Shown here piece after piece: positions 6,175 through 29,007 of a stretch of 29,007 nucleotides of DNA. Below the pieces are notes generated by a model, which was not told the DNA's origin, searched no databases, and worked only from the letters and a program-made list of their open reading frames with translations. Each line of letters opens with the position of its first letter. Within the stretch, counting starts at the first letter, position 1. Source of the stretch: Branchiostoma belcheri. Lineage: Eukaryota. The DNA is taken from NCBI RefSeq assembly GCF_001625305.1, contig NW_017804120.1:262546-291552 (forward strand). Direction: 5' to 3'. The position numbers were made by a program, and so were the translations under genes.

Positions 6175-6246
6175 ACTTGTACCAACACAGATGAACTTTC
6201 ATGCTAAATTTTCTAACCATTTAAAAATTTGGGATTTTTTCACCAG

Positions 6247-10268: not shown

Positions 10269-10280
10269 TTTATATTACAA
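10269..10280 (+). promoter_or_regulatory. Possible TATA-like element (gtttatattaca) ~30 bp upstream of the LRR gene ATG. Speculative core promoter.
   Basis: Sequence motif only. The 5' UTR would be very short if used. No transcript data. Confidence 0.2.
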
Positions 10281-10303
10281 CGAGTGAGAATTCTGCAATC
10301 ACG

Positions 10304-11793: not shown

Positions 11794-12122
11794 CAGTATG
11801 AGTTTTTAAAAGACAAATCTATTTAAGCCAGTGTTAACTCTACACACTATACAGTACATAATACATTTAATCATATGAGTTACTAACAGAGCCGAAAGGT
11901 CTGGGCCGGCGATGGGAGATTTTACTGCACATATTTGTTAAGTAGATGCGTAAAATAGGGGATTGGGCTACTGATGTATCAATTTGTTTTCAAAAGCCAG
12001 AAAACGAACTGGATTGACGCTTTGCAGTTTCTACCATGAGTTACCTCACGACATGGAGGTCTTAAACTGAGAGCTCAAAAAGATCTAGCGAATTTCTAAC
12101 TTAGGTCTCCCCTCCGTTTTTC

Positions 12123-12367
12123 TTAGCCTCCTTCATAGTCTTGTTGGGCGTGGGTGTTATTTTTGTGAGCGACGTGAGTAATATGCCACCGCGAGGGACG
12201 AGTTGCTGCCGAGGGAATTTTTGCCGCAGAGAGGTTTCCTTGTTGGAGCGCGAAACCTTCTCTCCGCGGCAAAAACTCCCTCGGCAGCAAATCGTCCCTC
12301 GTGGCATATTACTCGCGTCGCTCACAAAAATAACGCCCACACCCAACAAGACTGCAAAGGAGGCTAG
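12123..12367. mobile_element. Near-perfect 245-bp palindrome (foldback element) in the LRR gene intron. Arms ~115 bp, centre at ~12245.
   Basis: cttagcctccttcatagtcttgttgggcgtgggtgttatttttgtgagcgacgtgagtaatatgccac... mirrored by ...gtggcatattactcgcgtcgctcacaaaaataacgcccacacccaacaagactgcaaaggaggctagg. Produces mirror-image artefactual ORFs on both strands (12101..12349 -, 12141..12470 +). Confidence 0.75.
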
Positions 12368-13052
12368 GATAGGGCGTCATTGTAGCATGTACATGTATAC
12401 TGGGGACCAAGAATTATCCGTAGTGCATGTTTTTGTATACGGTCAATCTGCCTGGTTTGTTGTGCCGTAATTCTGGCGGTCCAAACGGGAGCTGCATATT
12501 CTGAATTAGTACGTATATACTAGGTTTGATATCAAAAGGTGCTGAGATCATATGAGGGAAGCTTACGAAATTCAATGCATTATGTGCACATGGGCCTTTT
12601 TCCACAGTTCAATTATTATTTTCTTTTTCTTATTTAGTAGGTACCCCGGTGGGTTGGCAGCGTATTCTTTCCTGTTGGTAGGGGTGTTTGGCATTATCAA
12701 CAAAATGATAGCATGCATGTAATGTTCAGAATATGATGATTTTCTTATGTGAGGCACGGAGGGGAAAAGGGCCTGGCTGGAGCTGTACAGGTTTATTATT
12801 CTAAATGACCGCAGGTGACCCTAAATGGAATATGCATTTGGTTTGAATTGATCGAGTGTGATCTAACAGAGTTTGGTTGCTAAAAAAGGTGGGAGCAATG
12901 AAGTCCAAGTTTATGCACTGTGGACTGATATGATGAGCTATTGTGTTAGATATCTGTGATTGAGTTTTTGGTATTTGTTGCTGCCATCTCATAAGTTTTT
13001 TTAAAAATCCCTTCGAAAATGATTAACAGTAGTTCGTTTTTTTTATCCTCAG

Positions 13053-15227
13053 AACCTGATACCTTCCTTGGGCTTGAGAAGGTAAAAGTCTTGAACCTTC
13101 AAAGGAACGCCATTTCCGTCATATCCCAGCATGCATTCTGCGGCCTACCTCTCCTATCCGTGTTGGTGTTAAGCATGAACCGTCTGCGTTCCGTGCCTGT
13201 CGACGCACTCCTGCCGCTTACAGCACTGAAGTTTGCACACCTGGAAACAAACCACATCACCACGATCGACAGCAAAATCCTGCGTCTGAATCACAACCAG
13301 ACCTTACGTCTGGCGTTATATGACAACCCGCTAAAATGTGACGCAAATCTCACCTGGTTCATCTGTAGTCTACCAGAGCTGGACTACATCGCTGGTCATC
13401 AACTCCTAAAGTGTGCGTCACCTGCCAACCTGAGCGGCATTCTGCTAGCCACCCTGAGGAAAGACATCAGTCAGACCAACATGGACAGGTCACCAAAGGG
13501 GATCAGGCTGGGGAGATGTGATGAAACGTCCACCACAACAGATCCGCATACCCATCTCACCAGGCTACACAACCACACCAGTCTGTACAACCACACCATT
13601 CCCACAGAGATGCCGTACACACACACCAGGCCAGGCTCAGAGTCTACCACAGGGACTGACGTGGTCACTCTTCACGGCGGCCCAATCATCACTGAGGAAG
13701 ACGACAGTTACCACGTCAATGCCGTCATCATGGCTGTTGTTGTGCCTCTCCTGATGGTGTTAGCAGCGGGGGTTGTCGTCTACTTGTACGAACGCTGTCA
13801 CGGCACACGTATGGCCCGGCGCAACGCCCCTGTTGAAACAGATGGAAACTCTGCCCAATCAGGAGCATCAGTCACGGGCACTCCTGCTCAGGACCAGACA
13901 TCAGAGGGTAACGATGACATTGAGCCATACGCTGTGTCATACATGGATGTGTCGGGAAAGGAAAAACGGCAAGCTTGCACCGTACGCAACAACCTCCTTT
14001 GCTAACATCCAGACAGCAGAAGAAAACGATGACATTGAGCCGTACGCTGTGTCATACATGGATGTGTCAGGGAAAGGGAAAAACGGCAAGCTTGCACCGT
14101 ACGCAACAACCTCCTTTGCTAACATCCAGACAACAGAAGACAACGATGACATTGAGCCGTACGCTGTGTCATACATGGATGTGTCCGGGAAAGGGAAAAA
14201 TGGCAAGCTTGCGCCGTACGCAACAACGTCCTTTGCTAACATCCAGCCAATAGAGGACAACGATGACATCCAGCCAATTGAAGACAACGATGACATCGAG
14301 CCATACGCTGTGTCATACATGGATGTGTCGGGGAAAGGGAAAAATGGCAAGCTTGCGCCGTACGCAACAACGTCCTTTGCTAACATCCAGCCAATAGAGG
14401 ACAACAATGACATCCAGCCAATTGAAGACAACGATGACATTGAGCCATACGCTGTGTCATACATGGATGTGTCGGGGAAGGGGAAAAATGGCAAGCTTTT
14501 TCCATATGCGACAACCTCCATCAATGAAGACCCAGGGCCACAGCTTCAGCCGTACGCAGTGACCCACGATGAAGACCCAGGGCCACAGCTTCAGCCATAT
14601 GCAGTGACCCACGATGAAGACCCAGGGCCACAGCTTCAGCCATATGCAATGACCCACGATGAAGACCCAGGGCCACAGCTTCAGCCATATGCAGTGACCC
14701 ACGATAAAGACCCAGGGCCACAGCTTCAGCCATATGCAGTGACCCACGATGAAGACCCCACACAAGCTACAAGATGCCATACAAGGGCAGGTTATACGTC
14801 GCTGACAAATGTCACTAACCAACAGACAACAAACGTCAAACAACCGGTCAACAAATCAGAGGGTCAGTCACTGCCAAAAGAGACAAACATCAAGCCAAAC
14901 TATGAGAAAGGCTACCCATCAACAAGAGATGGCAGGGGTCCATATGGAATGGGCAAGGGAAATGAGGTCCCAGGTGTCAGTGGAACGCTGTATCAAAGTG
15001 GCTCACAGCACACTGATACAAGAGCTGACAGGGGTACATATGGAATGGGCAAGGGAAATGAGGTCCCAAGTGTTAGTGGAACACTGTACCGAAATGGCTC
15101 ACAGCACACTGATACAAGAGATGACAGGGGTCCTTATGGAATGGGCAAGGGGAATGAGGTCCCAAGTGTCAGTGGAACACTGTACAGAAGTTGCTCACAG
15201 CACACTGGTGCAGAGAAGCACAGCTAA
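13053..15227 (+). CDS. Exon 2 of nested LRR-TM receptor. Encodes remaining LRRs, LRRCT (NPLKCDANLTWFICSLPELDYIAGHQLLKCASP), Thr/His-rich N-glycosylated stalk, transmembrane helix (AVIMAVVVPLLMVLAAGVVVYLY) and a cytoplasmic tail. The tail is made of three tandem repeat arrays rich in Tyr motifs (EPYAVSYMDVSGKGKNGKLAPYATTSFANIQ x5-6, DPGPQLQPYAVTHDE x5, RGPYGMGKGNEVPSVSGTLYRSGSQHTDTRDD x3). Stop TAA at 15225-15227. A 1-bp deletion near 13955-13965 shifts frame 2 to frame 0.
   Basis: Acceptor ttttttttatcctcag| at 13051-13052. Joining g(10730)+aa(13053-13054) gives GAA, in frame with exon 1 and a perfect LRR continuation. Two overlapping ORFs (13019..14005 and 13773..15227) differ by one missing g in the first repeat (gggaaagg-aaaaacgg versus gggaaagggaaaaacgg in later copies). 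Repeat periods 111, 45 and 105 bp are multiples of 3. Confidence 0.7.
13895..15215 (+). repeat. Coding tandem repeat arrays inside LRR gene exon 2. 111 bp x ~5.5 (13895-14520), 45 bp x 5 (14521-14755), 105 bp x 3 (14925-15215).
   Basis: Directly visible reiteration (e.g. gatgacattgagccatacgctgtgtcatacatggatgtgtcgggaaagggaaaaa..). Periods are multiples of 3 and the frame is kept open for 1.3 kb. Confidence 0.9.
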
Positions 15228-15277
15228 ACTCGCACGCTGTAGGACACGTAATTTTGTACAGCTCACAAACAGCCTGA

Positions 15278-15560
15278 GTTTAGACAGCACATCTCAAAAT
15301 CACAATCCTTTAGAACTCCGCTCACGGACAGCCAGGAGTAATGACAGCATATCTCACATGCTTTAGAACACAGCACATCATCAAGGACAGCATGAGGGTT
15401 TAGACAGCACATCTCAAAATCACAATCCTTTAGAACTCAGCTCACGGACAGCCAGGAGTAATGACAGCATATCTCACATGCTTTAGAACACAGCACATCA
15501 TCAAGGACAGCATGAGAGTTTAGACAGCACATCTCAAAATCACAAAGGGTCACAATCCCT
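15278..15560. repeat. 120-bp tandem repeat x ~2.3 in the presumed 3' UTR of the LRR gene.
   Basis: gtttagacagcacatctcaaaatcacaatcctttagaactc.gctcacggacagccaggagtaatgacagcatatctcacatgctttagaacacagcacatcatcaaggacagcatgag.g recurs at 15278, 15398 and 15518 with >97% identity. Confidence 0.85.
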
Positions 15561-15721
15561 AAGACGGGACTTTAAGCTGTGGTGCACTGTTCATTTTGCT
15601 TGTCGATAAGAGCCAGGAGAATTTACCTGGTACAATGAACCTGTAAATACTGTACATAGCGTCTGTCTTGTCTCTCACGACCAGTGTGAGCTACAACCGG
15701 ATCGAGATCGAGATTTTGATT

Positions 15722-15968
15722 TTTTTTAATTTTATTGAAATTGCAACAGTGCAATACACGCGGAACAGCTAGAGGCAGCTGTTGCTGGTGTTGTGTCCCA
15801 CACATAGAAACAAACACTGGACAGACAATACTCATTTTCACTTGAGTCTAGAGGGGAAAGTCTTGTAAAGTGCCTTCTCCCAAGGGCACAAGATTGGTGG
15901 CATGTCAGAACTCGAACCCGGGACCTCTTGATTCCGAGTCGTGCACGCTGCCATTGCGCCACACGACA
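15722..15968 (-). mobile_element. tRNA-derived SINE, copy 3 (divergent subfamily). Lies ~500 bp downstream of the LRR gene stop, with an A-run tail at its 3' end (T-run at 15722-15730 on +).
   Basis: Reverse complement GTGGCGCAATGGCAGCGTGCACGACTCGGAATCAAGAGGTCCCGGGTTCGAGTTCTGACATGCCACCAATCTTGTGCCCTTGGGAGAAGGCACTTTACAAGAC. Shares the tRNA head and the GTGCCCTTGGGA.AAGGCAC core. Confidence 0.65.
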
Positions 15969-16427
15969 CAATTTCCTTTGTTACAACAATTCCGCTTTCG
16001 ACTATACCCCGAAGTGATAACAAACTGAATTTCTTGCAGTGATGCAGTTATTGACTTATAAGAAACAAGGGTCTTGCTGCTGATCATAATATGACTGTAA
16101 CAAGGGCCTCATCCTGTTTATTCTACAGTCACGTTTCCAAACCTATGCCCTGCCGGGTAGGTATATATTTCTGCATCATTCTGTATTTGGTATAGCCGGT
16201 ATAACCCTTCAGCATAACACACCAGCTTTGCAGACGCGCGGCCTGGCGGCGGCTAGTCAATATCACACCGAACGACCTGTTACACTCAATATTTACACAT
16301 TTAATTGCAGTTGAGTTGTTAACATCATTTTAGCTTTAGCCAGATCATAGAAGAACAAGTCGTACCAAGGACAAGACAAATTATGCTAATGCTTTAGAAC
16401 AAGAACATTCTTTGCAAGAACACGCTT

Positions 16428-16700
16428 AGCCACCTTAACAGCAGAAAATCACCCTTTCTTTCTCAATAGTCCATCAGTCAAGAGAAAATTTCATGCTGAC
16501 AGTTTCTTCCCCAGAACCACTTCACTGTGGAACAAGCTTCCCCGTGAATGTTTCACCGCTAATTACAACCTCCAACGGTTTAAATCAAGGGTGAACAAAT
16601 ATCTGACCACGCAGTCATCACTGTAACCCAAAACATGTAAGTGGCTCTCACGAGCCTTGTTTTGAGGTGAATCTGAAGTAAATAAAAAAAAAAAAGCTCA
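16428..16700 (+). mobile_element. 5'-truncated CR1/L2-clade LINE 3' end. Last ~65 codons of the ORF2 C-terminus (…FHADSFFPRTTSLWNKLPRECFTANYNLQRFKSRVNKYLTTQSSL*) plus a short 3' UTR ending in an A-run (16683-16695).
   Basis: SFFPRT..WN.LP...L..FK.R..K.L is the characteristic C-terminal motif of CR1-like reverse-transcriptase ORF2 proteins (e.g. NSFFPRTIRDWNALP...LEAFKARLDKAL). Followed by aaataaaaaaaaaaaag. Confidence 0.6.
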
Positions 16701-16724
16701 GCCTGTGTAATGTATCTGGAAAAT

Positions 16725-16862
16725 TAATGTGTCTCGTATAGGACCTGCAAGGCGGAGAAAGAATTCCTTTTGACATTTTTCATCAGTACGTTCTATGGGA
16801 TGTATTCCACTCAAGAAAAGAGAGCTCGCGGATCAAAGAGATGTAGTCTGAACGTCTGAATT
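16725..16862 (+). repeat. Dispersed repeat family C, copy 2. Immediately downstream of the LINE tail.
   Basis: gtgtctcgtataggacctgcaaggcggagaaagaattccttttgacatttttcatcagtacgttctatgggatgtattccactcaagaaaagagagctcgcggatcaaagagatgta. Confidence 0.55.
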
Positions 16863-17222
16863 TCATTTCTGACTGCGCAGTCAAAGACTTAGTGTTGAAT
16901 ATGAAACCTCAATCCACTGATGAAACTACTAACAATACTGTACAACTACTGTACTATACAATGTCCTGGATGCTAATAATCCAGCATTTAATACCCTGCC
17001 AAAAGCAATAATTATTGTATATGTCAGGATCAACAAGATTTATCTAGTACATATGATACATGTATTATGCAACTTGAATGTATATTACACATATGAAAAC
17101 ACACTTATACATAATCACTGTCACTGTGTTTATGACATGTGTATGCGTGTATATTATACGCACATACACGTCATAAACACAGGGACATACACATACAGTA
17201 CACACACTTATATGCACACAGT

Positions 17223-17238
17223 CACACACACACACAAG

Positions 17239-17267
<29 letters not shown>
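17223..17267. repeat. (CA)n microsatellite within an AT/CA-rich low-complexity block (17050-17280). The block also contains a ~50-bp hairpin at 17130-17182.
   Basis: cacacacacaagcacacacacacacacacacacacacacacac. Palindrome tgtttatgacatgtgtatgcgtgtatattatacgcacatacacgtcataaaca. Confidence 0.9.
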
Positions 17268-17270
<3 letters not shown>

Positions 17271-17580
17271 TTAAGGTGATGTATATAGTATGGAAATGTT
17301 ACTCATTGACAAGCAACTACTAGTAGATAAATACAAACAGGAAATTAGTGGAAGTATTTTTCTCTCACTTAGATGTTCAAAGAATATGTTGTATACATGT
17401 TGTTAACATCTTTACATTACGTAAACCTACGAAAATATTTGGCTGCACGAGAAAAACTGGGTGCACAGCTCCCGTTTTGGGTGCACTAATTGTAATTAAA
17501 TAAGGTGCACATGCACCCAGTATTTTGGGCCCTGTTACATAATAATGATATTAATATCTAAAACTGTGTTAAAACTCCAG

Positions 17581-17751
17581 GTGAAATCTCAGCTGTGGAA
17601 AGCCGCCCAGCCTGGCCTAACGTCCGTGTCAGTTGATTGGCAGCAGTGGGATGATGATGCTCCGCCTCCCGTCCAGGCGCCCAATCAGATCGTCTCTCTC
17701 TTCAACGGCTCTCGTCAAGTGGTGTACGGTTACGTCCCTCACTGCACCCAG
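17581..17751 (+). CDS. Exon H of VIT+vWA gene. Encodes VKSQLWKAAQPGLTSVSVDWQQWDDDAPPPVQAPNQIVSLFNGSRQVVYGYVPHCTQ.
   Basis: Acceptor aaaactccag|, donor |gtgaac. 171 nt, phase 0. Contiguous in the VWA5A alignment with exon G (TLKRSLQPAVEDVSLSWHLPPG...VIFRGQRLISYAQLTG). Implies a ~10.4 kb intron between 7129 and 17580. Confidence 0.8.
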
Positions 17752-17889
17752 GTGAACATATTTCCTCTCCCAGCTTGCAAAGTAGCATTATGGTTGTTTC
17801 CATGCTTTTAGTGATGTTGACTAAGAATCTATTAGTAAAGGTTCTGGCAGGGTTTTTAATCCTTTCTGTTGTTGACAGTTTGAAAACAT

Positions 17890-18390
17890 ATTGTTTTTGC
17901 TCAGTTTATTTATTTATTTATTTCATCATAAGACAGCTGGGTAGCCCCGTTCATTAGCTGTTTTTCAAGGGGGCCCAGCAAAATTACACAAGACATTGTT
18001 ACATACAGTAAGACAAGAGTGGACAACATACAGTAAACATAAAAGTCTGATGCGTCAAAACAGAGTCATAGTCCTATACTCAAAGTCCTAGCCGTTCAAA
18101 GGTCAAAACACGAAAATCAAGGAATGGAGATTGGTTTATTCTTCTTCGTCAGTTCCAAATTCATTGACCTGGACCAGGTGTACATGTATGTCATAATGGA
18201 AACTGGTGCTGTAGCAACACCCTGTGGTGTTGGGTTACTTTAAAAAATGTATGTACATGTATCAGAACAGATTTGAAGAGGCTGCCCATCATCATACATA
18301 TATTAAGTATTTGACTTTGAGTAAGAATAAACAGAGCAGTAGTTTGTTCAGCTAGACAGTGAACTTCAAGGTAACATTAACTCAAAAATA
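17890..18390 (+). repeat. Dispersed repeat family B, copy 3. Interrupted by a nested 222-bp insertion (17911-18132) flanked by a 7-bp direct duplication GTTTATT.
   Basis: ttgtttttgctcagtttatt | insertion | gtttattcttcttcgtcagttccaaattcattgacctggaccaggtg...gtggtgttgggttac...tttgagtaagaataaacagagcagtagtttgttcagctagac. The uninterrupted homologue is at 22018-22285. Confidence 0.7.
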
Positions 18391-18612
18391 CTATCATGAA
18401 AGTTGGTAGTTACATGTTTAATGTTAAAACTTTTGTTCCAACACGAAAAATTCTCTCACCTAGAGCTTTCGACCAGTCACTCTGGTCATCCTCAGTAGAC
18501 TGACCCAGTGAAGCTTGTCACATGGCTTCTTTGAAGTGTGACGTCAACACTGGGTCAAAGGTATCTGGTAGACAATGTCGACCCCCATCGCGGTTCAATG
18601 TAGGGTGATGCA
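18391..18612. mobile_element. Solo arm of foldback family F (same family as 27722-28215).
   Basis: ctatcatgaaagttggtagttacatgtttaatgttaaaacttttgttccaacacgaaaaattctctcacctagagctttcgaccagtcactctggtc...gggtcaaaggtatctggtagacaatgtcgacccccatcgcggttcaatgtagggtgatg is ~90% identical to the left arm at 27722-27930. Confidence 0.7.
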
Positions 18613-19370
18613 CTACCAAAAATGCTTTTTCTTGTTTTTCTTATTTTCTCATGGGAAGAAAATTTTTCTTTGGGGGAGAATAATAAGAAAAAAATAAGAA
18701 AAAAATAAATTTTCTGTATACCTACATTCTTGCACCAAGAACTATTTCCTCATTTTTCTTGAGTGGAGATAATTTTTCTAAAATAGGCTTCTTTAAATCT
18801 TGATTTTTCTTTGGTGAAGAAATATTTCTAGAGGAGATTCTAACTTACAAGATTAGAATTCTTGTAATCTTGAAATTTCTTTAGTAAAGACAATATTTCT
18901 AGGGAAGATTCTAAGTTACAAGATTAAAATTCTTTTAATCTTAAAATTCCCTCAGACTTAGTTAAATTTTCTTATTTAATCTCCATGGAAGATTTCTTTC
19001 TTACCTGACATCAAAGTGGTCAGATTTAAGATTTTTTTTCTTGTGTATTTCAAAAAATTTCTAGTTCATGTTACCGAGAATGATTGAAAAAGGCCATTCT
19101 TGTTTTTCTTAGCAATGTTTAAGAAAATACAAGAATTTGGTTCTTGCCTTTCTTGGCAAACACTGATTGGAAAAGCAAGAAATTTAATTATCTAAATCTA
19201 TTATTAGAATAAAGCTCTGCTTAGTGTTTCTTTCTTAAAGTTTCTTGTTTTTCTTGACTAGAAAGCTTAAGAAAGATCATTCTTGTTTTTCTTGGCAACA
19301 TTTAAGAAAATACAAGAATAAAGTTCTTATCTTTCTTGACAAATACTGATAAGAAAAAAAACTAGAGAGG
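18610..19370. repeat. Satellite-like low-complexity domain built from the mutually reverse-complementary words TTCTTG/CAAGAA. Includes ~75-bp tandem units (18760-18960) and two ~100-bp units (19060-19160, 19262-19365). A related block lies at 20270-20420.
   Basis: Recurrent aagaaaggccattcttgtttttcttagcaa(c/t)(a/g)tttaagaaaatacaagaat at 19085, 19275 and 20290. Extreme ttcttg / aagaaa word bias. Confidence 0.6.
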
Positions 19371-19959
19371 CCGACATTTGCTTGGGAGCAAATACAGCAT
19401 ATTTCAGTCCATCTCCCTCCCACGCAAAAGTGGACTATTCCAAACTTACCCCAGTGTAAAACTGGCAAAGATTCTCAAATAAGTGAATTATATAGTAGCT
19501 ATGTAATTGAGAACAAAGATGCAAGAACAAGCACATTGAATCTCGAAAGCTTTACTAATCTTATTACAGGTATGCAAATACTAACAATGATGAGATTTGA
19601 TACATTTTGAAGGTCTTAGGCACATAGAATTGAATGTGTGGGTCATTAGGCACGACTTACGTGCAATGTGACCTCAGGTAACCCACATTGGAACACGTGT
19701 TCCATGGCCAATGGCAGATGGAACGGGCATTCTTTACATAGAACATGGAACGGGTATAGCACTTTTGGCCCTTTTTTTGCTCAAAATAGCCATCAAAGTC
19801 CCCCAAATGAGTCATTTGGAAGTGGTGTATGCCAAATATGTGACTGCTATTCTGTAGACACATGTTCAAGGTACCCTTATACCGAATTTCAGATCATTTG
19901 GTTGTAAAACCAGGGCTCAGTATCCAAAAATCCATTTTTTGTCGAAAAATGCCCCAAAA

Positions 19960-20160
19960 AACCTTCATAAAAATTTTTCAAAGGCATGTATCAAAAAAAT
20001 GAAAAAAACGCCTGGGGGTATTGGCCCACTCTACCTCCAGGCCAAATTTCAAGTCATTTGGCTGAATGATGGCGGAGTTGAATCCCTTTGACTGTTTGGC
20101 AGGAGGAGAAGGAGGAGAAGGAGAAGAAGAAGAAACATCAGAGAACACAATATATTTCAT
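19960..20160 (+). repeat. Dispersed repeat family D, copy 1. Contains a (GGA/GAA)n microsatellite at 20098-20140. The inverted copy is at 25860-26020.
   Basis: ggcctggaggtagagtgggccaatacccccaggcg and ggaggagaaggaggagaaggagaagaagaagaaacatcagagaacacaatat match the reverse complement of 25868-26003. Confidence 0.5.
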
Positions 20161-21249
20161 CCATACCATGGTATGGACTGAAATATAACAAGAAAGTCTG
20201 ATATAAAATTGATCTTTGATTAGGCTGAAGATATGGCTAGTATTATATTCTTAAACATTCTTGATTTTCTTCCCTAGTAAGTTTAAGAAAGGCCATTCTT
20301 GTTTTTCTTAGCAACATTTAAGAAAATACCAGAAAGTTTAAGAAAGATGATTCTTATTTTGCCTGGTGATGTTCAAGATGATGTAAGAACTTTTTTCTAG
20401 TTTTTCTTGTCATGTGACCTTTTCTAAACCCCTGATTGGTTGATTCAAATCCCAGAATGCAGTTAGGGGTTTTGAACATAAGTCAGATGTAAGAGCCGCG
20501 CTGCTACTTATTTTTGTCAGTTACTGACTCATGTCAGATTTGAAGTCAAAATCAAATCAAAAAGGACCTTGTGTACATGTGAAGCAATGGAGATCGTGGT
20601 CATCTTGCTGAAGAAACCAACTTTGCAACAGAAAAAGCATGAAACCAAACAGATTGAAGGTAAGTGCGCCCCCCTCCCCACCTATAAGATCTGTTGACAT
20701 TGTTTTTAGACTTCATAGCCCAAATATTGTTACAACGCCATTGGGGTTGATTTCAAAGTCAAATCATTATCTCTGGTGTATTGTATAGTAAAGTTTATTA
20801 CAGTGCTTTCTAATACAATTTTAAATTGTTTACTCCAAGTAATAAAATAGTATTTTAGCATCCTCTTTTGACTTGTTGCCTTCAGTACACGCATGCAAAC
20901 TAACACAGGTCTTTCCTGTTGTTTTTCAGGTGTCCAAAGGGTGTGACTTTGCCAATTCTATAATGCGAAAACTGCAGTTTTTGCTGAATATGCTTCTGAT
21001 CTGAATGTGATACGATCTGTATTCTGAAATCATAATGGCTTGTTAGTTACATCGTATAATATTTTGAAAGTTACTGTTAACTCTTTCCATTCCAAGAATG
21101 TTGATGGACTGATTTTATATTTTTAATTAGATACATTGTACAAAAATCAATGTGATAATAAACATCTCTATAGTGTCCAAATGCTTTTCAAAATAACATT
21201 TAGTTGCTATACATTATTGTCTGTTTTATATTTAGGTAGCACTATATAC

Positions 21250-21790
21250 ATTGTATTTCTTTTCTTGTGGGCAGAATGGTTTTCTTGCTACAAGAACAGA
21301 GTCAGCTCTTATTTCAAGAAATCTTTTCTTGTGTACAGAATGGTTTTCTTGCTACAAGAACAGTTAGCTTCGTTCAAGAAATCTCTTCTTGTGGGCAGAA
21401 TGGTTTTCTTGCTACAAGCACAGTTAGCTCATAGTTCAAGAAATCTTTTCTTGTGGGGAGAATGGTTTTCTTACTACAAGAACAGTTAGCTCTTAGTTCA
21501 AGAAATCTTTCCTTGCGTGGAGAATGGTTTTCTCGCCACAAGAAGAGTTAGATAATAGTTCAAGAAACCTTTTCTTGTGGGGAGAATGGTTTTCTTGCCA
21601 CAAGAACAGTTAGATCTTAGTTCAAGAAATCTTTTCTTGTGTACAGAATGGTTTTCTTACCATAAGAAGAGTTAGATCTAAGTTCAAGAAATCTCTTCTT
21701 GTGGGCAGAATGGTTTTCTTGCTACAAGAAGAGTTAGATCTTAATTCAAGAAATCTTTTCTTGTGTACAGAATAATTTTCTAGAAAACTT
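21250..21790. repeat. Minisatellite. ~61-bp unit x ~9 (tcttttcttgtgggcagaatggttttcttgctacaagaacagttagctcttagttcaagaaa), decaying to 21990. Compositionally related to the 18610-19370 block.
   Basis: cagaatggttttcttgc recurs at 21271, 21336, 21396, 21458 ... with a 60-64 bp period. Confidence 0.85.
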
Positions 21791-22017
21791 AGAAATTCTT
21801 ACTGCAAGAATAATATTCTAAGGATATTTAGTCCAAGATATATAAGAAAAGAAATCTTACCACAAGAAAAATATGCTAAAATGCAGTTTCTTGAAATTCT
21901 TGTCTCATGGACAAGATTTTTTTCTTGGATGAAGAATAATTTTCTCAGTGGAAGAAAAGTTTTCTTCTCTGAAGAAAAACAAGATTGGCATTTTTGGTAG
22001 TGTGGGCCCTGATAGTT

Positions 22018-22285
22018 TATTGTTTTTGCTCAGTTTATTCTTCTTCGTCAGTTCCAAATTCATTGCCCTAAACAAGGTGTCAGAAGCTGTCATAATGGAA
22101 ACTGGTGCTGTAGCAACACCCTGTGGTGTTGGGCTACTTTTAAAAAAAATGTATGACATTGTACATGTAGCAGAACAGATTTGGAGAGGCTGCCCATCAT
22201 CATACATATAAAATTTATTTGACTTTGGGTAAGAATAAACATAGCAGTAGTTTGTTGGGCTAGACGGCGAGGGTAACATTAATAT
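22018..22285 (+). repeat. Dispersed repeat family B, copy 4 (uninterrupted, ~270 bp).
   Basis: ttgtttttgctcagtttattcttcttcgtcagttccaaattcattgccc...gtcataatggaaactggtgctgtagcaacaccctgtggtgttgggctac...tttgggtaagaataaacatagcagtagtttgttgggctagac. Confidence 0.7.
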
Positions 22286-22354
22286 AATTATTATAATAAT
22301 AATTATGCATTAATGGCTTAAAGTTTCTAGTTTTAATGTTTTGTTTCATTTCAG

Positions 22355-22435
22355 GCCACTCTGAAGGCTGTTATTAACAACCGTGAGATCAGCACCATGG
22401 TGTCCACTTCTGAACTCAGCATCACAGCTGGCAAG
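22355..22435 (+). CDS. Exon I of VIT+vWA gene. Encodes ATLKAVINNREISTMVSTSELSITAGK.
   Basis: Acceptor tttcatttcag|, donor |gtgggc. 81 nt, phase 0. Position in the alignment is consistent with VWA5A ...GEVCLKYTLQGKTFEDKVTF. Confidence 0.65.
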
Positions 22436-22485
22436 GTGGGCAGCTTTTTGGCAACACCACAGGAGCAGTGCCATATTTCACCTTA

Positions 22486-22764
22486 AGGCCACACCAATTT
22501 AATTTGTTGGTTCTCAGAATTTTTTATAAAAAATATGAAGCGACAGGGCGGAAAAAATTAAAATAAAATCAGGTCTAGGCATCCTATTATAGCCCAAAAT
22601 GCTATGATAAGAGCCATGAAGTCAACACAAAAGGCTGGGTTAATATGTAAACAATGAATTTCGAACTTTTGATAGATGGAAAAACTGTAGGAACTAGGAA
22701 GAAAAGGACTTTCCCCAACTGAAGAGGCTAATCCGAGAACCAACAAATTAAATTGGTGTGGCCT
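22486..22764 (-). mobile_element. MITE family A, copy 3 (internally deleted, inverted orientation). Begins 50 bp downstream of the exon I donor.
   Basis: aaggccacaccaatttaatttgttggttctcagaatttttt...ccgagaaccaacaaattaaattggtgtggcct. Internal sequence is the reverse complement of the right half of copy 1. Confidence 0.75.
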
Positions 22765-23197
22765 AAAGAAACTTAATGTCCTTCCCGCAACCATTGGCAT
22801 AGTCGCATATGGCGATGCCCATTCCTGTTTTGGTAGCCCTTGGGCCACACAGTTGTGCAATCACTACATCAGGGGGTTTAAGCATGCTAAGGTTTAAATT
22901 GCTTATAAATCGAGGACGTCATAATTTTATCACAGTAATCAGTTAATTAAGGATACAGAGTTTTTATAAATATTCTACTTAAAGCTTGTTACAATTTATG
23001 CTTGTTTGTGCAGACTTCTTTTTCTCGCTTTTGTTTTCGTTGACTTTTATTATTTGTTATAATGTTGATAATGTTATTTTATTGTTGGTGTTGTCCCCCA
23101 GACATTCCGTGAAAAAAGCCAGAAGGCCATAAGTCTTTTTGGATAAATAAAGAACAACAAGAACATGATCATGGGAACTGGTTCAAAAAGCTGAGGA

Positions 23198-23440
23198 AGT
23201 TTTTTTTTACCGAATTTAACGTCATTTTTCCCCAAACGGGTGTTAGACGTGCTTGCACCAAGTACAAGTCTTTTTTTTAAGCAAGATTTTTACGGCTGGA
23301 TGCTCTTCCTAACGCCAACCGGAACCCAAACCCTTTAGTGAGGCTCAGGATCCCTCTAACTGAGGGGGGAAATACGTGTAAAGTGCCTTTCCCAAGGGCA
23401 CAACGTCTGGGTGCATGTTCGGACATGTCTCAGTCCAATC
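23198..23440 (-). mobile_element. tRNA-derived SINE, copy 4. 5'-truncated within the tRNA head, full tail with poly-A (T-run 23203-23211 on +).
   Basis: Reverse complement matches copy 1 from GGATTGGACTGAGACATGTCCGAACATGCACCCAGACGTTGTGCCCTTGGGAAAGGCAC through CGTTAGGAAGAGCATCCAGCCGTAAAAATCTTGC...GCACGTCTAACACCC. Confidence 0.7.
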
Positions 23441-23531
23441 CTGAGTGATTTTGTCAAGAATTTTGGTAATTCTTCGAGTTGAAGAACAGTTAAAAGTTTA
23501 TTGTAACTTACAACACGGTTTGTTTTTTCAG

Positions 23532-23612
23532 ATCCTGCACCAGCTAACGGCTCGAGCTGTGATCAGGGACTGGGAAGATGGAACACTGCATGTAGACAGG
23601 ACACACCACGAG
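23532..23612 (+). CDS. Exon J of VIT+vWA gene. Encodes ILHQLTARAVIRDWEDGTLHVDRTHHE.
   Basis: Acceptor tgttttttcag|, donor |gtcagt. 81 nt, phase 0. Parallels VWA5A LTIHRLAARSLLQTKDMGL. Confidence 0.75.
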
Positions 23613-23670
23613 GTCAGTCTATTTTCCTGAAATTAAGAATTATAGGGCTGTGTTGTATACATTGTACTTA

Positions 23671-23962
23671 GGTCACATCAATTTAATTTGTTGGTTCTCG
23701 CATTCGCCTCTTCATTTTTTCTGATTTGCAAAAAAAAAAATTCTGGTTCTGAATCAACTCAAAAATGCTCATAATTTGCACCCAACAGTTGAGGAAAGTT
23801 TATTTCTTCCTACTTGTTACAGTTTTTCCATCTATCAATGCAGTGGTTTGATTAAAGTTCAAAATTCATTGTTTAGATATTAACCCAGTATTTTGTGTTA
23901 ACTTCATGGTTCCTATTGTAGCATTTGGGGCTGTAATAGGATGCTCGGACCTGTTTTTATTT
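23671..23962 (+). mobile_element. MITE family A, copy 4 (degenerate left TIR ggtcacatcaatttaatttgttggttc, 3'-truncated).
   Basis: Internal sequence collinear with copy 1 (cattttttctgatttgcaaaaaaaaa...gctcataatttgcacccaacagttgaggaaagt...cagtggtttgattaaagttcaaaattcattgtttag). Confidence 0.65.
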
Positions 23963-24546
23963 CTGAAAAAAATATAATTATTAAATCAGTATGTAAACCC
24001 TCAATAAAAAGATAATCTACCACCAAAAAAAGACAGTTAGCCACTGTAATGTACATGTAATGTTATATCTTACAGTAACAATTACTGTTGATTGGCCAAA
24101 CTGGTTAAGGTACAGGTTTTTGTTCTGTACCTACTGATATACCTGTACCTGTAAATAAAACGTATGTAGCTCACCTATACACAGCTCTACCAAATTAACA
24201 TAGAATGAAATTCATCAATGCTATGATAATGATGTTATAATGATAATAACTTGCATCATTGACGTTTGTTTCCTTTTGGACTTTGGAATTTATCTTCACT
24301 AATTTGCATAGCAATCAGTAGTTCGTTCTTATAAACCTGCTTTCTCCTGCAGTCTCTTAGTGTCACTGACAAAAGCTAGTGGATGCTACCTGAAACGTCT
24401 GACCATTTCCAAAATCATGTCCAGTTGCTTGAGTAACTGTTTTTTGGTGTATCGTATTACTTAGTACCTGGATGTCTAATCTTCACATAAGACACCGACA
24501 TAATATTCTTTCACCACACTTTGAATGTTTTCTACTTTTTTTCTAG

Positions 24547-24648
24547 ACCAAGAAGATGGGACTGAAACCTTACATTATCAGTCTCAGTAAAGAGTACTCC
24601 ATTGTCACACAGTTTACCAGCTTTGTGGCCGTGGAAAAGAGAGAACAG
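24547..24648 (+). CDS. Exon K of VIT+vWA gene. Encodes TKKMGLKPYIISLSKEYSIVTQFTSFVAVEKREQ.
   Basis: Acceptor ctttttttctag|, donor |gtgaga. 102 nt, phase 0. Parallels VWA5A LNLSLESGVISSFTAFIAINKELNKPVQ. Confidence 0.75.
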
Positions 24649-24774
24649 GTGAGAAAAGTTTTGGCAACCCCTCAGGAGTGGTTCCATTATACAATGTATC
24701 TGTAACATAATATGCAATTTGAACACTTCATTTCACTCAGCACTACTGGTCAGAACGTAGAATGATCTATTTCA

Positions 24775-25120
24775 CATGTGCCATGTTGGATTACAGTTTA
24801 TTCTGGACTTCCAGTTTAATTCAGGACTAATTCCCATATAACCTTACATCTAGATGGGCCAATGTTGTAAACTACAGGTAATTTAAAAATGATGTATGAA
24901 ATACGAAGTAGCCATTAAGGACCCCGTGGGGATTAACCCAATTCTGCAGAATTCTTCCCAGAATTCTGGCTCCAGTTCGCAGAATTCTACAAAATTCTGG
25001 CTCCATTTGCACTACATATAGTATACATATTTCTTACATCATTTTGACCTATAGTTTACAATCATGATTCATCCAGAATGATACTGGAAGTCCAAAATTA
25101 AACTGGAGGCTGTTCTATTA
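24775..25120. mobile_element. Inverted-repeat element in the intron between exons K and L. Arms share ggacttccagt / cagtttaatt / tgtaaactacaggt motifs.
   Basis: 24793-24830 (cagtttattctggacttccagtttaattcagg) and 24866-24879 pair with 25048-25061 (acctatagtttaca) and 25067-25112 (ccagaatgatactggaagtccaaaattaaactgg). Confidence 0.4.
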
Positions 25121-25207
25121 CATGCTGCTGCTGTAATCAATGAATATGATATGGTATGGTATAATATGATATGATTATTGAATCAGATATGATATGGTTT
25201 GATATAG

Positions 25208-25336
25208 GGTGAAGATCTAACAACTGGTGATGGTCCCACCATCAAAGAACTGGTGCAGAAGGAGAGTGTAGACATCCTATCATACATGGGATGGCAGCAG
25301 GACGAAGGACAATTGGATAGTACAGAACTGTTTGAG
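25208..25336 (+). CDS. Exon L of VIT+vWA gene. Encodes GEDLTTGDGPTIKELVQKESVDILSYMGWQQDEGQLDSTELFE. Further 3' exons were not identified in the window.
   Basis: Acceptor gatatag|, donor |gtaaga. 129 nt, phase 0, open frame. Confidence 0.6.
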
Positions 25337-25545
25337 GTAAGAAGCATTGAAAAGACTATAAGGACACAGTTATATGCAAATTTAATTTATTAAGTTATCT
25401 GTAGATTAATTAGAAAGGGGGTAGGAAACTGAGAGATATCTTTAATTTTGGAATTTCTAAACAGGTTGAAATCCTTAAAATCATCAATATTGATGTGCAA
25501 ATAAGACTTAGTCAAGTACAATGTACAACATGAACTATGATGTTG

Positions 25546-25750
25546 GTATCATGAAAGTTCTTCTGTGTTTAACTTTAGTAGTAATCATAGTAAAATGTTG
25601 AACTTTATTTATTCCAACACTAAGTTACAGACAGATCAAATATTCAGCCATTTCAGTCATTAATTATCCTGATGAAGGCAACAGTGGTCATTGAAAATTG
25701 GATCTCTGTGTTACTTTGTGTTGGAAGAAAATTGAATGTTTCAATTATAT
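25546..25750 (+). mobile_element. MITE family G, short copy (deletion derivative).
   Basis: tcatgaaagttcttctgtg...atcatagtaaaatgttgaactttatttattccaacactaagttacagacagatcaaatatt...attaattatcctgatgaaggcaacagtggtcattgaaaattggatctctgtgttactttgtgttggaa. Same ends and internal attaattatcctgatgaaggc.acagtggtcat as 26710-27045. Confidence 0.6.
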
Positions 25751-25859
25751 ATTATTAATGATGTTTGTATGCCTTAATTACTAGACTAAAGTGTTTGTTG
25801 CAAAGTCTTTTTGCATATATTTTATATCTTTTTGCATATATTTATGGGTTCACCACAGA

Positions 25860-26020
25860 AGTGGTGTGGTGAAACCATATTGCTTTTTCTGATGTTTCTT
25901 CTTCTTCTCCTCCTCCTGCCATTTTTTAAATGGATTCAGCTTCTTCATTTTAGGGCCCAAGGTCCTGAAATTTGGTATGGAGGTACAGTGGGCAAATACC
26001 CCTAGGTGTTTTTTAAATTA
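25860..26020 (-). repeat. Dispersed repeat family D, copy 2 (inverted relative to 19960-20160).
   Basis: atattgctttttctgatgtttcttcttcttctcctcctcctgcc...ggtatggaggtacagtgggcaaatacccctaggtg. Confidence 0.5.
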
Positions 26021-26709
26021 TTGTGATACAGGCTTTTAGAATGGTTTTATTTGAGTTTTTTGGCTGTGTTATAGCAAATGTATTACTGTGTTAGTGTGCC
26101 TTGTTTACCACGTTTGGGCATGAGTCATCACAATGGAATGCAGGGCATCAACCAATAGGCATGCAGCTTTCCTCTATACTTCTTGCTGATTGGCTGTTGG
26201 GATTTAACTTGATTAACACCTGCACAGAAGAATTTCTGACAGTATGTCTGTATTCAAGTGTTTTGGTAGGTATTTCAAGCTTTCCTGCTCCAGCATTGGA
26301 ATGCCGGGCATGGACGTTTTTTTTTTATTTTGAAAATCAACAGTTTGCATTATGCAATTAAAAATCCTAACCAATAAAGTAGGGAATAGCTATCCAACTG
26401 TTGTTTTAGTTGTATTTTACTTCATATTATAGTTATATCAATGTAAATCATTGTTTTCCCTTGTGTTTCCCATTCTTTCCCTGCCATGTCGTAAAATGTG
26501 GTGAACCCATCGCTGTATTTGCTCCAAAGCAAATATTGGCCTTTCTAGTTGCATATCTTTTTGCATATATTTTGCATGTATTTATGTTTTGTAAATATGT
26601 CATGTGTGTCTTGAAGGACCACAGGAAGAATAGCTACATTTGTTGTAAGCTAAATGTGGATCCCAATAAAGTCAAAGTCAAAGTCATATAGTTACTAGAA
26701 TAATTATTC

Positions 26710-27045
26710 TTATCATGAAAGTTCATCTGTGTTGGTAATAATCATAGTAAAACATTGAACTTTATTCCAACACAAGGGTTACAGAGCGATCAAATTTTCG
26801 ACGACAATTGTCGCCTTCAACAGGATAAGTAATGACCAATCACTTCACAACGTGATCTCGCGAGAGTTACGGTTTACAAAAACGTGACCTTATTCACACG
26901 AGACTTTACTGATACGTGACGTAAGCAATTGATCAAAAGATTAATTATCCTGATGAAGGCGACAGTGGTCATCAAAAATTTGATCGCTCTGTAACCCTTG
27001 TGTTGGAATAAAGTTCAATGTTTTACAATAATTATTCTTGTTGGC
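26710..27045 (+). mobile_element. MITE family G, long copy (~335 bp). ~50-bp TIRs (aaaacattgaactttattccaacacaagggttacagagcgatcaaatttt / aaaaatttgatcgctctgtaacccttgtgttggaataaagttcaatgtttt). Abuts the 14-3-3-like ORF.
   Basis: TIRs seen directly. The internal sequence contains TGACGTAA (CRE-like) at ~26915. Confidence 0.7.
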
Positions 27046-27048
27046 CAG

Positions 27049-27483
27049 ACCACAACTAAAGCCCTTGGAGACAACTTGGAGTTAAACGCCGCATTGGTTA
27101 TAGCAAATAATGAGCGTAATCTACCGCCAACTGATGCAACAGTACTACAGGCGAAACTGCAGTTAGCAACGTTTTATCGCGACAAGTTGAATATGCCAAA
27201 AAACGCATGCCAGATTGCCAAGTCGGCGTTTGACGACGCGATTGCGGAGTTAGATACGATGAGCAAAGAAAGCTACAAGGACACGACCTTGGTCATGCAG
27301 CAGTTGAGAGACAACTTGACCTTGTGGTCTTCAGAGGACAGGGAAGAAAAAAAAACAGCTAGTGGAAAGAAAAAGGTGCCAAACCTCAAGTTGCATGATG
27401 TCGCATCTAGGAAGCACGTCGGCAGAACGTACTGCACCTGCGCAAAACCCGTAATGTATCATCATTTGCACATAGCTCTTTGA
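27049..27483 (+). pseudogene. Divergent 14-3-3-like C-terminal fragment (helices ~7-9 only). Encodes ...[73 protein letters not shown]... Likely a pseudogene fragment or an orphan terminal exon.
   Basis: Unmistakable similarity to the conserved 14-3-3 C-terminus (…[67 protein letters not shown]). No N-terminal 14-3-3 helices are found upstream. The upstream sequence is a MITE. Strongest homology spans 27115-27345. Confidence 0.5.
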
Positions 27484-27721
27484 CAGAATGTCTCATATAA
27501 GGTCACATTCGCACATACTAAGGTCAACATCTGACTGTAATTTCCAAATGTTATAATGTCAGAAAAGATATCGTCTGCAACAGGCCAAATTCTGCGGCAA
27601 CGCTGACCAAAAATCCAATGGAAACCGTGAAAAATTGGGGTTTTGCTCAGGCGTAGTTTACGTTCTGTCAACGTGCGTATCTAGATCTAGGACTGTGTGT
27701 GTGAGTGCACACATACATGTA

Positions 27722-28215
27722 GTCATGTTTAAAGTTAAAACTTTTGATCCAACAAAAAGAAATCTCTCACCTAGAGCTTTCGACCAGTCACTCTGGTCTT
27801 CCTCTAGTAGACTGACCCAGTGAAGCTTGTCACATGGCTTCTTTGAAGTGTGACGTCAACACTGGGTCAAAGGTATCTGGTAGACGATGTCAGCCCCCGT
27901 CGCGGTTCAAAGAAGGGTGATTTTGGACACTGAACAAGACTATATTTCTTGAGAGGGGTGAAGGAAGCCATATACATCAGGGCCCATCACCCTACATTGA
28001 ACTGCGACGGGGGCCAACATCGTATACCAGATACCTTTGACCCAGTTTTGACGTCACACTTCAAAGAAGCCACGTGACAAGCTTCACTGGGTCAGTCTAC
28101 TGAGGAAGAGTGACTGGTCGAAAGCTCTAGGTGAGAGATTTCTTTGTGTTGGATCAAAAGTTTTAACTTTAAACACTTAACATGTGACTAACAACTAAAG
28201 ATGAACTTTCATGAT
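27722..28215. mobile_element. Large foldback element, family F. ~200-bp inverted arms around an ~80-bp centre.
   Basis: Left gtcatgtttaaagttaaaacttttgatccaacaaaaagaaatctctcacctagagctttcgaccagtcactctggtc...cgcggttcaaagaagggtgat. Right atcaccctacattgaactgcgacgggggcc...gaccagagtgactggtcgaaagctctaggtgagagatttctttgtgttggatcaaaagttttaactttaaacac...catgaaagttcatc. Confidence 0.75.
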
Positions 28216-29007
28216 AGTATTAGTTATTGTAGTGTTCTAGCAGGCCTTTTTAGCATAGGGGCCCCCTATGTTATGATTTTGACCCCTATGCTATAATTTT
28301 GACCCCGCTTAAGTTTCAACCAGCATAGGGGTGTTTTGGGAGGGAGAAACTTCATAAATCTTGCAAAAAATGAAAATATAACTTTAGAATGATGCTATTT
28401 AGGGAAAACCTTAACTTCACAAAACAAAGAAGAAATAGTGTCTCAGGGGTTTATGAGTTTCAAAAGTATGTAATAGTATGGGATGAGAATTAAGTATGGG
28501 ATGAAAAATAAGGCATTTACAATGATTTTGAAAATTTCTAATATATTATACAAAATACAAGATATAACAGTAATATAATATCATTAACTTGTTTTTATTT
28601 ATCATTTTGTTTTGAAATTGCTAACAGTCATTCTCATACACATATCTCGGCTACAATCTATATGATTAACATCGCGGTAAAATTAAAAAATATTTTGATA
28701 TATGACTGTAATTATACACATTTGCTGCTATGTTCCAAGACAGTTATACCAGCTGTACTGATACAGATACAGATGCTCAGTCATGATATTATTAATGCTC
28801 GTTATTGATACTTAATTAGGCTTTTAGCTTTTATAGAAAGGACCCCTAGAGTAACCAAGCGTGTAAAAGCAATCTATATCTAATGAGCCTTGTACATCCC
28901 TGAACAAAGTACAATTAATCTTTAGGGTATACTTAGTTCATACCTATTTCTGGCTTGAAAGTAGACCATACATTATTTAGATTATTTTGAATTACTTTGA
29001 AGTCAAA

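Follow-up and report, generated by a model that had tools for sequence, protein, structure and literature searches.

A 29,007-nucleotide stretch of the genome of the amphioxus Branchiostoma belcheri (assembly GCF_001625305.1, contig NW_017804120.1, positions 262,546 to 291,552 of the forward strand; hereafter the window) had previously been described from its letters alone, and this preliminary description singled out, towards the 3' end, what looked like an orphan C-terminal fragment of a 14-3-3 protein lying between two foldback miniature inverted-repeat transposable elements (MITEs). Here we report that positions 27049-27375, which encode this 14-3-3-like piece, are very probably a coding exon of amphioxus PARP4, the vault poly-ADP-ribose polymerase, and that the MITEs would be later insertions into its introns. 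The comparisons that follow establish the identity of the gene, the boundaries of the exon, its orthology, its age relative to the MITEs and the purifying selection acting on it.

The host gene and its exons in the window

When the + strand exons upstream of the segment, which encode VIT and vWA pieces, were joined, every strong database match of the product was a PARP4 protein (E down to 1e-186), with 55-61% identity to PARP4 of mollusc, brachiopod and coral origin, and the matched proteins carry PF08487, PF13768 and PF00092 (VIT and vWA). VIT-vWA exons had already been noticed upstream on the same strand, and the gene to which they belong is PARP4. A tblastn search with the PARP4 protein of B. 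lanceolatum recovered 13 collinear exons in the window (38.7% G+C, AT-rich animal DNA), which begins at about residue 737 of this orthologue, inside VIT; the exons for the BRCT and PARP catalytic domains are expected upstream of it. The last three exons are called B, C and D below:

1370-1504, 2134-2283, ~3138-3287, ~3850-4062, ~4823-4896, ~6247-6437 and ~7029-7131, + strand: seven PARP4 exons, VIT and vWA (tblastn)
17581-17751, + strand: PARP4 exon (VKSQLWKAAQPGLTSVSVDWQQ…VPHCTQ) (tblastn and sequence)
22355-22435, + strand: PARP4 exon (ATLKAVINNREISTMVSTSELSITAGK) (tblastn and stop-free segments)
23532-23612, + strand: PARP4 exon (ILHQLTARAVIRDWEDGTLHVDRTHHE), boundaries approximate (tblastn and stop-free segments)
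24547-24648, + strand: PARP4 exon B (…YSIVTQFTSFVAVEKREQ), tctag|ACC … CAG|gtgaga (sequence and tblastn)
25208-25336, + strand: PARP4 exon C (GEDLTTGDGPTIKELVQKESVDILSYMGWQQDEGQLDSTELFE), acceptor atag|GGT, donor GAG|gtaaga, phase 0 at both ends
27049-27375, + strand: PARP4 exon D, 109 codons, phase 0 at both ends, 14-3-3-like helices F-I
27376-27483, + strand: read-through of the exon D donor to the stop codon at 27481-27483, most likely intron

The motif VD.L.Y.GW encoded by exon C is conserved in PARP4 tails. Position 27049 is preceded by ttcttgttggccAG and starts a complete codon of the 14-3-3 frame, and since the exon C donor at 25336 and the start of exon D are both in phase 0, splicing from one to the other across the 1712-nt intron would remain in frame; this 25336|27049 junction rests on gene models and conservation.

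That the two parts belong to one protein was seen in an exhaustive HMMER search of 1.84 billion representatives, with the exons from ~23530 to exon D inclusive as query. The best match was the B. lanceolatum PARP4 protein CAH1248284.1 (1363 residues), which aligned in a single stretch (query 1-206 against residues 1144-1342, 78% identity, E=3.7e-89) and which reads, across the junction, …TSFVAVEKREKGEDLTTGDGPSIEELVGKESVDILSYMGWERDQGETE and then, uninterrupted, the 14-3-3-like piece, so that the segment is an in-frame exon of PARP4 and no orphan. The precomputed Pfam domains of this protein are PARP_reg, PARP, VIT, VWA and 14-3-3, and the whole predicted protein of the window is 87% identical to it over 613 residues. 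The second match was a B. belcheri PARP4 (KAI8502339.1, 96-98% identity over the shared parts). A word-indexed protein search with the segment alone returned canonical 14-3-3s only, at no more than 60-70% identity, and missed the amphioxus PARP4 proteins, so that used by itself it would have wrongly suggested an orphan.

We then compared the DNA of the window with the B. lanceolatum locus (L001; OV696701.1, 44 kb) and with a second B. belcheri haplotype (L002; JALCYT010000026.1, assembly GCA_025402995.1), the non-coding DNA of which is 94-98% identical to that of the window. In L001, the exon D acceptor (…cttgatggaCAG|ATC ATG GAA) coincides exactly with an annotated coding-sequence boundary, and the donor reads GAA AAG|GTGCTT where the window has AAA AAG|GTGCCA. 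Both splice sites of exon D in the window (acceptor ttggccAG|ACC, donor AAG|gtgcc) are therefore conserved in B. lanceolatum, with an acceptor CAG|A and a donor AAG|GTGC at homologous positions, and in the DNA alignment similarity decays outside exon D. The homologue of exon C was found at L001 33110-33220 with homologous splice sites, and the intron between C and D measures 588 nt in that species.

Concerning the exit from exon D, a second phase-0 donor exists at 27450|27451 (CCC|gtaatg) and is used by the GenBank B. belcheri model KAI8502339.1. We prefer 27375|27376 as the likely donor because it is conserved in B. lanceolatum and does not lie inside a transposable element; both candidates are in phase 0, so that either keeps the frame. 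The preliminary description had offered, among other interpretations, a fast-evolving terminal exon, and this came closest: exon D is a fast-evolving exon of the VIT-vWA gene, but it is probably internal rather than terminal. The MVP-interaction domain (PF26156) is encoded downstream in the B. belcheri and B. lanceolatum loci in the same order, outside the window, which ends at 29007. The next PARP4 exon ('AEVTDYEDIM…') falls outside the window, 1.2 kb further on in L002, and no further tail exons (actin, ubiquitin, calmodulin, VAMP or MVP-interaction domain) were found when sought in 27484-29007. In the B. lanceolatum annotation, PARP4 is split into two genes, at L001 10001-34177 and L001 38030-42086, the second of 281 aa with PF26156; this split is probably an annotation artefact, because the downstream exons, those between the two genes, are collinear with the single B. 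belcheri model.

Sequence and predicted fold of the 14-3-3-like segment

The frame is free of stop codons from 26995 to 27480 and does encode the peptide quoted in the preliminary description, the identification of which as a C-terminal 14-3-3 fragment is borne out by a Pfam match (PF00244, E=2e-22, 80.3 bits against a gathering cut-off of 33.2) that is confined to the last third of the domain (profile positions 145-223 of 223). When two canonical 14-3-3 proteins served as queries, tblastn against the window gave a sole significant match, at 27040-27372 (aa 133-240 of 243, E=3e-32), and detected no other 14-3-3 part anywhere in the 29 kb, in keeping with the reported absence of the N-terminal two-thirds. 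Diverged upstream 14-3-3 exons, sought in the window using a sponge tail as query, were not found either; the stop-free stretches of the C-D intron are derived from transposable elements or of low complexity, and in the B. lanceolatum orthologue only about 25 residues lead from 'YMGW' to helix F. It had been envisaged that an ordinary gene would reveal itself through upstream 14-3-3 exons spliced to this one; none was found in the window, and the ordinary splicing would instead be to PARP4 exon C. Nor does the terminal inverted repeat of the upstream MITE supply an in-frame ATG, as had been proposed: downstream of the TAA at 26992-26994, this frame has no ATG before the one at 27193, which already belongs to the 14-3-3 part. 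The ATG at 27018 lies in another frame, and the listed open reading frame has a TTG as its 'start'.

A phmmer search against PDB sequences matched 14-3-3 epsilon and zeta (E≈8e-25) over the last ~80 residues only. An AlphaFold model of the segment (mean pLDDT 76.7) showed four helices, which superposed on helices F-I of solved 14-3-3s with 1.7 Å over ~84 residues, a 14-3-3-like geometry that was partly imposed by an input alignment consisting mostly of canonical 14-3-3s. The TM-score was 0.68 when normalised to the query and 0.33 when normalised to the target, corresponding to one third of the fold; by this measure as by the profile coverage, the nine-helix domain is incomplete.

In canonical 14-3-3 proteins, helices A-D form the dimer interface, and Lys49, Arg56, Arg127 and Tyr128 form the phosphate-binding pocket. 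With helices A-E missing, the segment has neither. Among the groove residues that we compared in the alignment (Leu172, Asn173, Val176, Leu216, Ile217, Leu220, Asn224, Leu227 and Trp228; zeta numbering), Asn173 has become Gln and Val176 has become Thr in helix 7, and those of helix 9 are kept save for Ile217Val and Leu220Gln. Helices 8-9 are, as first reported, near-canonical (80-85% identity to canonical 14-3-3, including LRDNLTLW), and helix 7 is far more diverged than they are. Since the dimer interface, the phosphate pocket and the groove Asn of helix 7 are lost, it appears very unlikely that the amphioxus module works as a classical phosphopeptide-binding 14-3-3 dimer. At several positions where a complete domain has small or hydrophobic residues that pack on helices E/F, the module has Gln, Lys or Arg, which fits a face that has become exposed.

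The module in PARP4 proteins of other lineages

A 14-3-3 module was found behind VIT-vWA and a '…TSFVA(I/V)E…VD.L.Y.GW' motif in many PARP4 proteins. In the sponge Geodia barretti (CAI8020734.1), similarity to 14-3-3 zeta extends over aa 3-228 (E=4.5e-21) and is followed by an actin piece, a VAMP-like piece and the MVP-interaction domain; the module is also present in PARP4 of the sea slug Plakobranchus, in the dictyostelids Cavenderia (zeta 8-229), Heterostelium, D. purpureum and Synstelium, and in protein P0164 (assembly GCA_041443045.1), and in three further eukaryotic proteins (P0254, P0265 and P0274) the end of vWA and the 14-3-3 piece share one uninterrupted open reading frame. Across these modules, helix 7 has diverged and has no canonical LNFSVF, and helices 8-9 keep AFD(D/E)AI.ELD.L.E.SY…LRD.LT.W. 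The helix 7 divergence to which the preliminary description drew attention is thus real, but, being shared by all PARP4-appended 14-3-3 modules from amoebae to animals, it is a family trait and not a local decay. PARP4-type proteins appear to have carried the module behind VIT-vWA since before amoebae and animals split.

The combination of PARP4 and 14-3-3 has been known since 2014, when Perina et al. (DNA Repair 23:4, PMC4245714, section 3.1.2) described clade-5 'PARP4-like' proteins in which a 14-3-3 domain is appended to VIT and vWA. The species listed in that section are four amoebae, the lancelet B. floridae, sea urchin and Capsaspora, and some members are said there to have additional actin or ubiquitin-related domains. 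A full-text literature search found no other paper on the PARP4/14-3-3 architecture and no functional work on it.

Pieces of other proteins also occur in PARP4 tails, as seen in a survey of proteins P0121, P0171, P0184, P0211, P0213, P0228, P0243, P0256, P0261, P0266, P0267, P0268 and P0277: actin aa ~2-70 in Nematostella, Mytilus edulis, Saccostrea, Dysidea and Geodia; ubiquitin in Biomphalaria, Bulinus, Mytilus coruscus, Plakobranchus and Dysidea; calmodulin EF-hands in M. edulis, a rotifer and another eukaryote that also has 14-3-3 helices 8-9; and VAMP-like SNARE stretches in Saccostrea and Geodia, with a similar-looking stretch, recognised by eye only, in the B. belcheri model. Some of these pieces may be gene-model fusions. 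Calmodulin and SNARE pieces were not met in the section of Perina et al. 2014 (PMC4245714) that deals with these proteins, and none of the 14-3-3, actin, ubiquitin, calmodulin or SNARE-like pieces was found in vertebrate PARP4 among the database matches.

Selection on exon D

Rates of synonymous (dS) and non-synonymous (dN) substitution between the window and B. lanceolatum were estimated by the Nei-Gojobori method, with nine other PARP4 exons as comparison set:

Exon D: dS 0.77, dN 0.198, dN/dS 0.26
406 codons of nine other PARP4 exons: dS 0.52, dN 0.037, dN/dS 0.07

The changes in exon D amount to 30.8/63.8 synonymous and 43.2/248.2 non-synonymous (Fisher P=8.7e-7 for the synonymous excess), and each half of the exon taken separately gives a dN/dS of about 0.24-0.26. 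As judged from these rates, exon D is under purifying selection, weaker than that on the VIT-vWA core, the non-synonymous rate being ~5x that of the core. A dN/dS significantly below 1 shows that exon D is not a neutral pseudogene.

Foldback elements flanking exon D

Both foldback elements of the preliminary description were recovered, with arms that are 92% complementary in the upstream one and 99% and 93% complementary in the downstream one, and a third that had been missed was found between them. The elements, listed without strand, are:

26711-27027: MITE1, foldback in the C-D intron, arms 26737-26833 / 26940-27036 (92% complementary)
25547-25756: shorter copy of the MITE1 family, in the C-D intron
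27413-27676: third foldback element, arms 27414-27450 / 27638-27676
27722-28215: large foldback in the downstream intron, arms 27726-27794 / 28107-28175 (99%) and 27806-27921 / 27986-28101 (93%)

MITE1 is flanked by a 16-nt direct repeat, TA(G/C)AATAATTATTCTT (26696-26711 and 27024-27039). The third foldback begins 38 nt past the conserved donor of exon D, contains the alternative donor 27450|27451 and has another copy at L002 3813-4067. The MITE1 and large foldback families have other copies in the window (25547-25756, 6126-6207 and 18406-18609, the last a half-copy of the large foldback), and they share a terminal motif, TATCATGAAAGTTCATCT, in opposite orientation, which accounts for a 35-nt 'outer' inverted repeat at 26694-26728 / 28199-28233. 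We considered whether this repeat marks the ends of one composite transposon and rejected the idea, the repeat being the shared terminal motif of two element families.

All three elements were found in L002, together with further copies in that locus, and neither these copies nor those in the window contain 14-3-3 sequence. None of the three had a match in the 44-kb L001, where only chance matches of 13-18 nt were returned (E≈0.4-0.5). Since exon D occupies the orthologous site in B. lanceolatum without the elements, it is older than they are; on this comparison, the three foldbacks are later, lineage-specific insertions into introns.

Homology between the window and L002 ends at 28219, so that this structural difference between haplotypes sits just downstream of the large foldback; the last ~790 nt of the window (28220-29007) differ and include a repeat that is also found at 8439-8613 (- strand).

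Points against the exon and rival explanations

Several observations weigh against taking 27049-27375 as a normal exon of amphioxus PARP4. Its use as an exon is deduced from conservation and from the gene models of relatives, and the B. lanceolatum model ends by read-through of the exon D donor, 17 codons past it. In the window, the end of MITE1 lies ~22 nt upstream of the exon D acceptor, where the branch point is expected. The L002 haplotype lacks window positions 26861-27228 (368 bp; at L002 ~11666, with 2-nt CG microhomology at the breakpoint), so that MITE1 loses its right half, and exon D its acceptor and codons 1-60. When differences were polarised with eleven outgroup sequences, the window had derived residues at six well-conserved positions and B. 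lanceolatum at none, against 4:3 in the core, the six changes being PTHP→PTDA (two positions), L→M, E→K, S→T and I→V; these counts are too small for significance, and they are suggestive of relaxed constraint on the lineage of the window. Finally, the docking role proposed below for helices 8-9 in amphioxus PARP4 is an inference.

The GenBank model of the L002 haplotype, KAI8502339.1, splices exon C into the left arm of MITE1, at a cryptic AG (window 26775-26776), so that 28 MITE-derived codons (GYRAIKFSTT…HNVIS) run in frame into the remaining 14-3-3 helices 8-9; it then exits at CCC|GTAATG (27450|27451), and the ~1000 residues that follow include a SNARE-like stretch and lead up to the MVP-interaction domain. 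This allele is possibly a case of MITE exonisation that rescues a damaged exon, or else an artefact of annotation or assembly; the deletion itself may be a rare allele or an assembly error.

If the exon were being lost in the B. belcheri lineage, skipped or variably included and on its way to becoming intronic debris, one would expect a deletion allele, an excess of derived changes including loss of the PTHP motif, a high dN and transposable elements closing in from both sides (~22 nt upstream and ~38 nt downstream), all of which are seen. We nevertheless regard such erosion as unlikely, since all 109 codons are open between two intact splice sites, helices 8-9 remain >80% identical to canonical 14-3-3 and dN/dS, although an average over both lineages since their split, is significantly below 1, the 6:0 count and the deletion being subject to the reservations given above. 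The decaying pseudogene of the preliminary description fares similarly: the open frame, the conserved splice sites and the dN/dS mostly speak against it, and only the signs of relaxed constraint (the deletion allele and the 6:0 count) fit. The comparison with another haplotype, which had been proposed as a check for frameshifts, revealed the disabling deletion of L002, but the frame of the window itself is open. Read-through of the donor to the stop at 27481-27483 could alternatively make exon D the last exon of a short PARP4 isoform that has a C-terminal 14-3-3-like piece and no MVP-interaction domain. The open reading frame does run to a stop 108 nt past the donor, and the B. lanceolatum annotation ends in this way, with the exons of the MVP-interaction domain called as a separate gene. 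Yet both relatives have downstream PARP4 exons, those of that domain among them, with order and strand unchanged, and the GenBank model for B. belcheri unites them; the read-through peptide shows no conservation between the species and, in the window, enters the element at 27413-27676, and no AATAAA was seen between the stop and the foldback at 27722; we thus give this isoform a small, if somewhat better, chance.

The position of the fragment between foldback elements, and the 35-nt outer inverted repeat (86% complementary) that brackets 26694-28233, are what one would expect if a piece of a canonical 14-3-3 gene had been captured and carried between MITE ends, as in Pack-MITEs. This transduplication, also put forward in the preliminary description, is refuted by the B. 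lanceolatum comparison, in which the exon with the same splice sites stands at the orthologous site of a 44-kb locus devoid of all three elements; in addition, the flanks are different elements that share a motif, their own copies have no 14-3-3 cargo, and the module stands at the same place in sponge and amoeba PARP4, which makes capture highly improbable. Most improbable of all is a processed or truncated pseudogene of a canonical 14-3-3 lying in a PARP4 intron. It would explain why only the C-terminal third is present and why the sequences nearest to the piece alone are canonical 14-3-3s, at 55-60% identity, but stops, frameshifts and a poly(A) tract are all absent, the segment opens immediately after a conserved AG and keeps the phase of the PARP4 exon before it, and PARP4 of other phyla has had an orthologue of it for hundreds of millions of years; the junction alignment, the splice-site conservation and the dN/dS of 0.26 refute this reading. 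A coding exon of PARP4 thus remains the explanation that we favour.

Other features of the PARP4 introns

A leucine-rich repeat (LRR) gene is nested at 10229-15224 in the 10.4-kb PARP4 intron 7132-17580, on the + strand and so in the same orientation as PARP4 (Pfam LRR_8, E=1.5e-12). Its tail consists of tandem coding repeats with units of 117/144 nt, 45 nt and 96 nt and contains Tyr-rich motifs, e.g. EPYAVSYMDV and LQPYAVTHDEDPGPQ. The equivalent intron of B. lanceolatum is only ~550 nt long (L001 ~30082-30628), so that an insert of the size of the LRR gene is lineage-specific. Two intronic minisatellites were found at 5045-5893 and 21258-21781, one with a 61-nt unit x13.9 at 92% identity and the other with a 62-nt unit x8.5 at 86%. 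An Rfam scan gave only a borderline tRNA-like match, at 15897-15968 (- strand, 29.5 bits against a cut-off of 29), far from exon D; the translated motif around it (…CALGKGTL / ALGKALYT…) recurs in PARP4 introns at ~4180-4300, ~7400-7580 and ~23280-23500, which suggests a family of tRNA-derived short interspersed elements.

Discussion

In the model that we propose, PARP4 would be transcribed on the + strand through the VIT/vWA exons (1370-7131 and 17581-25336), the transcript would be spliced from 25336 to 27049, phase 0 to phase 0, exon D would contribute the last four helices (F-I) of a 14-3-3-like module, and splicing would leave it at 27375|27376 towards exons beyond the window that encode an acidic linker, a SNARE-like stretch and the MVP-interaction domain. 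The near-canonical surface of helices 8-9, the part that selection retains, would then most likely serve, we infer, for the docking of a partner protein within the long PARP4 tail. What looked like a captured gene fragment between MITEs is, on this model, a normal and ancient exon of the neighbouring gene in introns rich in transposable elements, and the locus may serve as a cautionary case. It also points to an almost unstudied feature of PARP4, an enigmatic vault enzyme, for which amphioxus offers a natural series on the role of the module: the full exon in the window and in B. lanceolatum, and an allele without its 5' half, modelled with a MITE-derived exon.

As a pure conjecture, to which we give little credence, the PARP4 tail could be an array of built-in baits taken from hub proteins that pathogens target: 14-3-3 helices F-I, the N-terminal ~70 residues of actin, ubiquitin, calmodulin EF-hands and VAMP-like SNARE stretches. 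Across PARP4 of sponges, cnidarians, molluscs, rotifers, amphioxus and amoebae, such fragments do occur together, as Perina et al. had noted in part. If this were true, the fast evolution and the presence/absence polymorphism of exon D would reflect host-pathogen conflict, and the binding of an effector would be coupled to ADP-ribosylation or to vault association. Domains of host proteins are found inside immune sensors in TRIM5-CypA fusions and in the 'integrated decoys' of plant NLRs. The likeness would be one of principle only, a conserved piece of a host protein in a conflict-linked family, and we do not claim membership: where these are recent and lineage-specific, the PARP4-14-3-3 fusion is old and conserved, and a pathogen ligand is purely hypothetical.

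Compared with Pack-MITEs, the locus is alike in having a fragment between inverted-repeat elements, but here the elements inserted separately, and the fragment, an in-frame exon of its host gene, predates them. Compared with canonical 14-3-3 proteins (PF00244; human YWHAZ and YWHAE), the sequence of helices 8-9 and the predicted F-I fold are alike; those proteins are free 28-kDa dimers, whereas the amphioxus module is embedded in a protein of >1300 residues and has Leu220 replaced by Gln. The clade-5 PARP4-like proteins (CAH1248284.1, KAI8502339.1, CAI8020734.1, Cavenderia fasciculata XP_004366641.1 and Heterostelium album XP_020434976.1) belong to the same family as the gene of the window. 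They show the same order of VIT, vWA, 'TSFVAVE…VD.L.Y.GW' and 14-3-3-like piece, and, as in the window, helix 7 has diverged, the groove Asn is lost and helices 8-9 are near-canonical. Within this family, dictyostelids and the sponge keep almost the whole 14-3-3 domain (zeta aa 3/8-229), whereas amphioxus, several other eukaryotes and P0164 have helices F-I only (zeta aa ~140-232), encoded in amphioxus by a single exon, of which the allele in the window is more diverged than that of B. lanceolatum.

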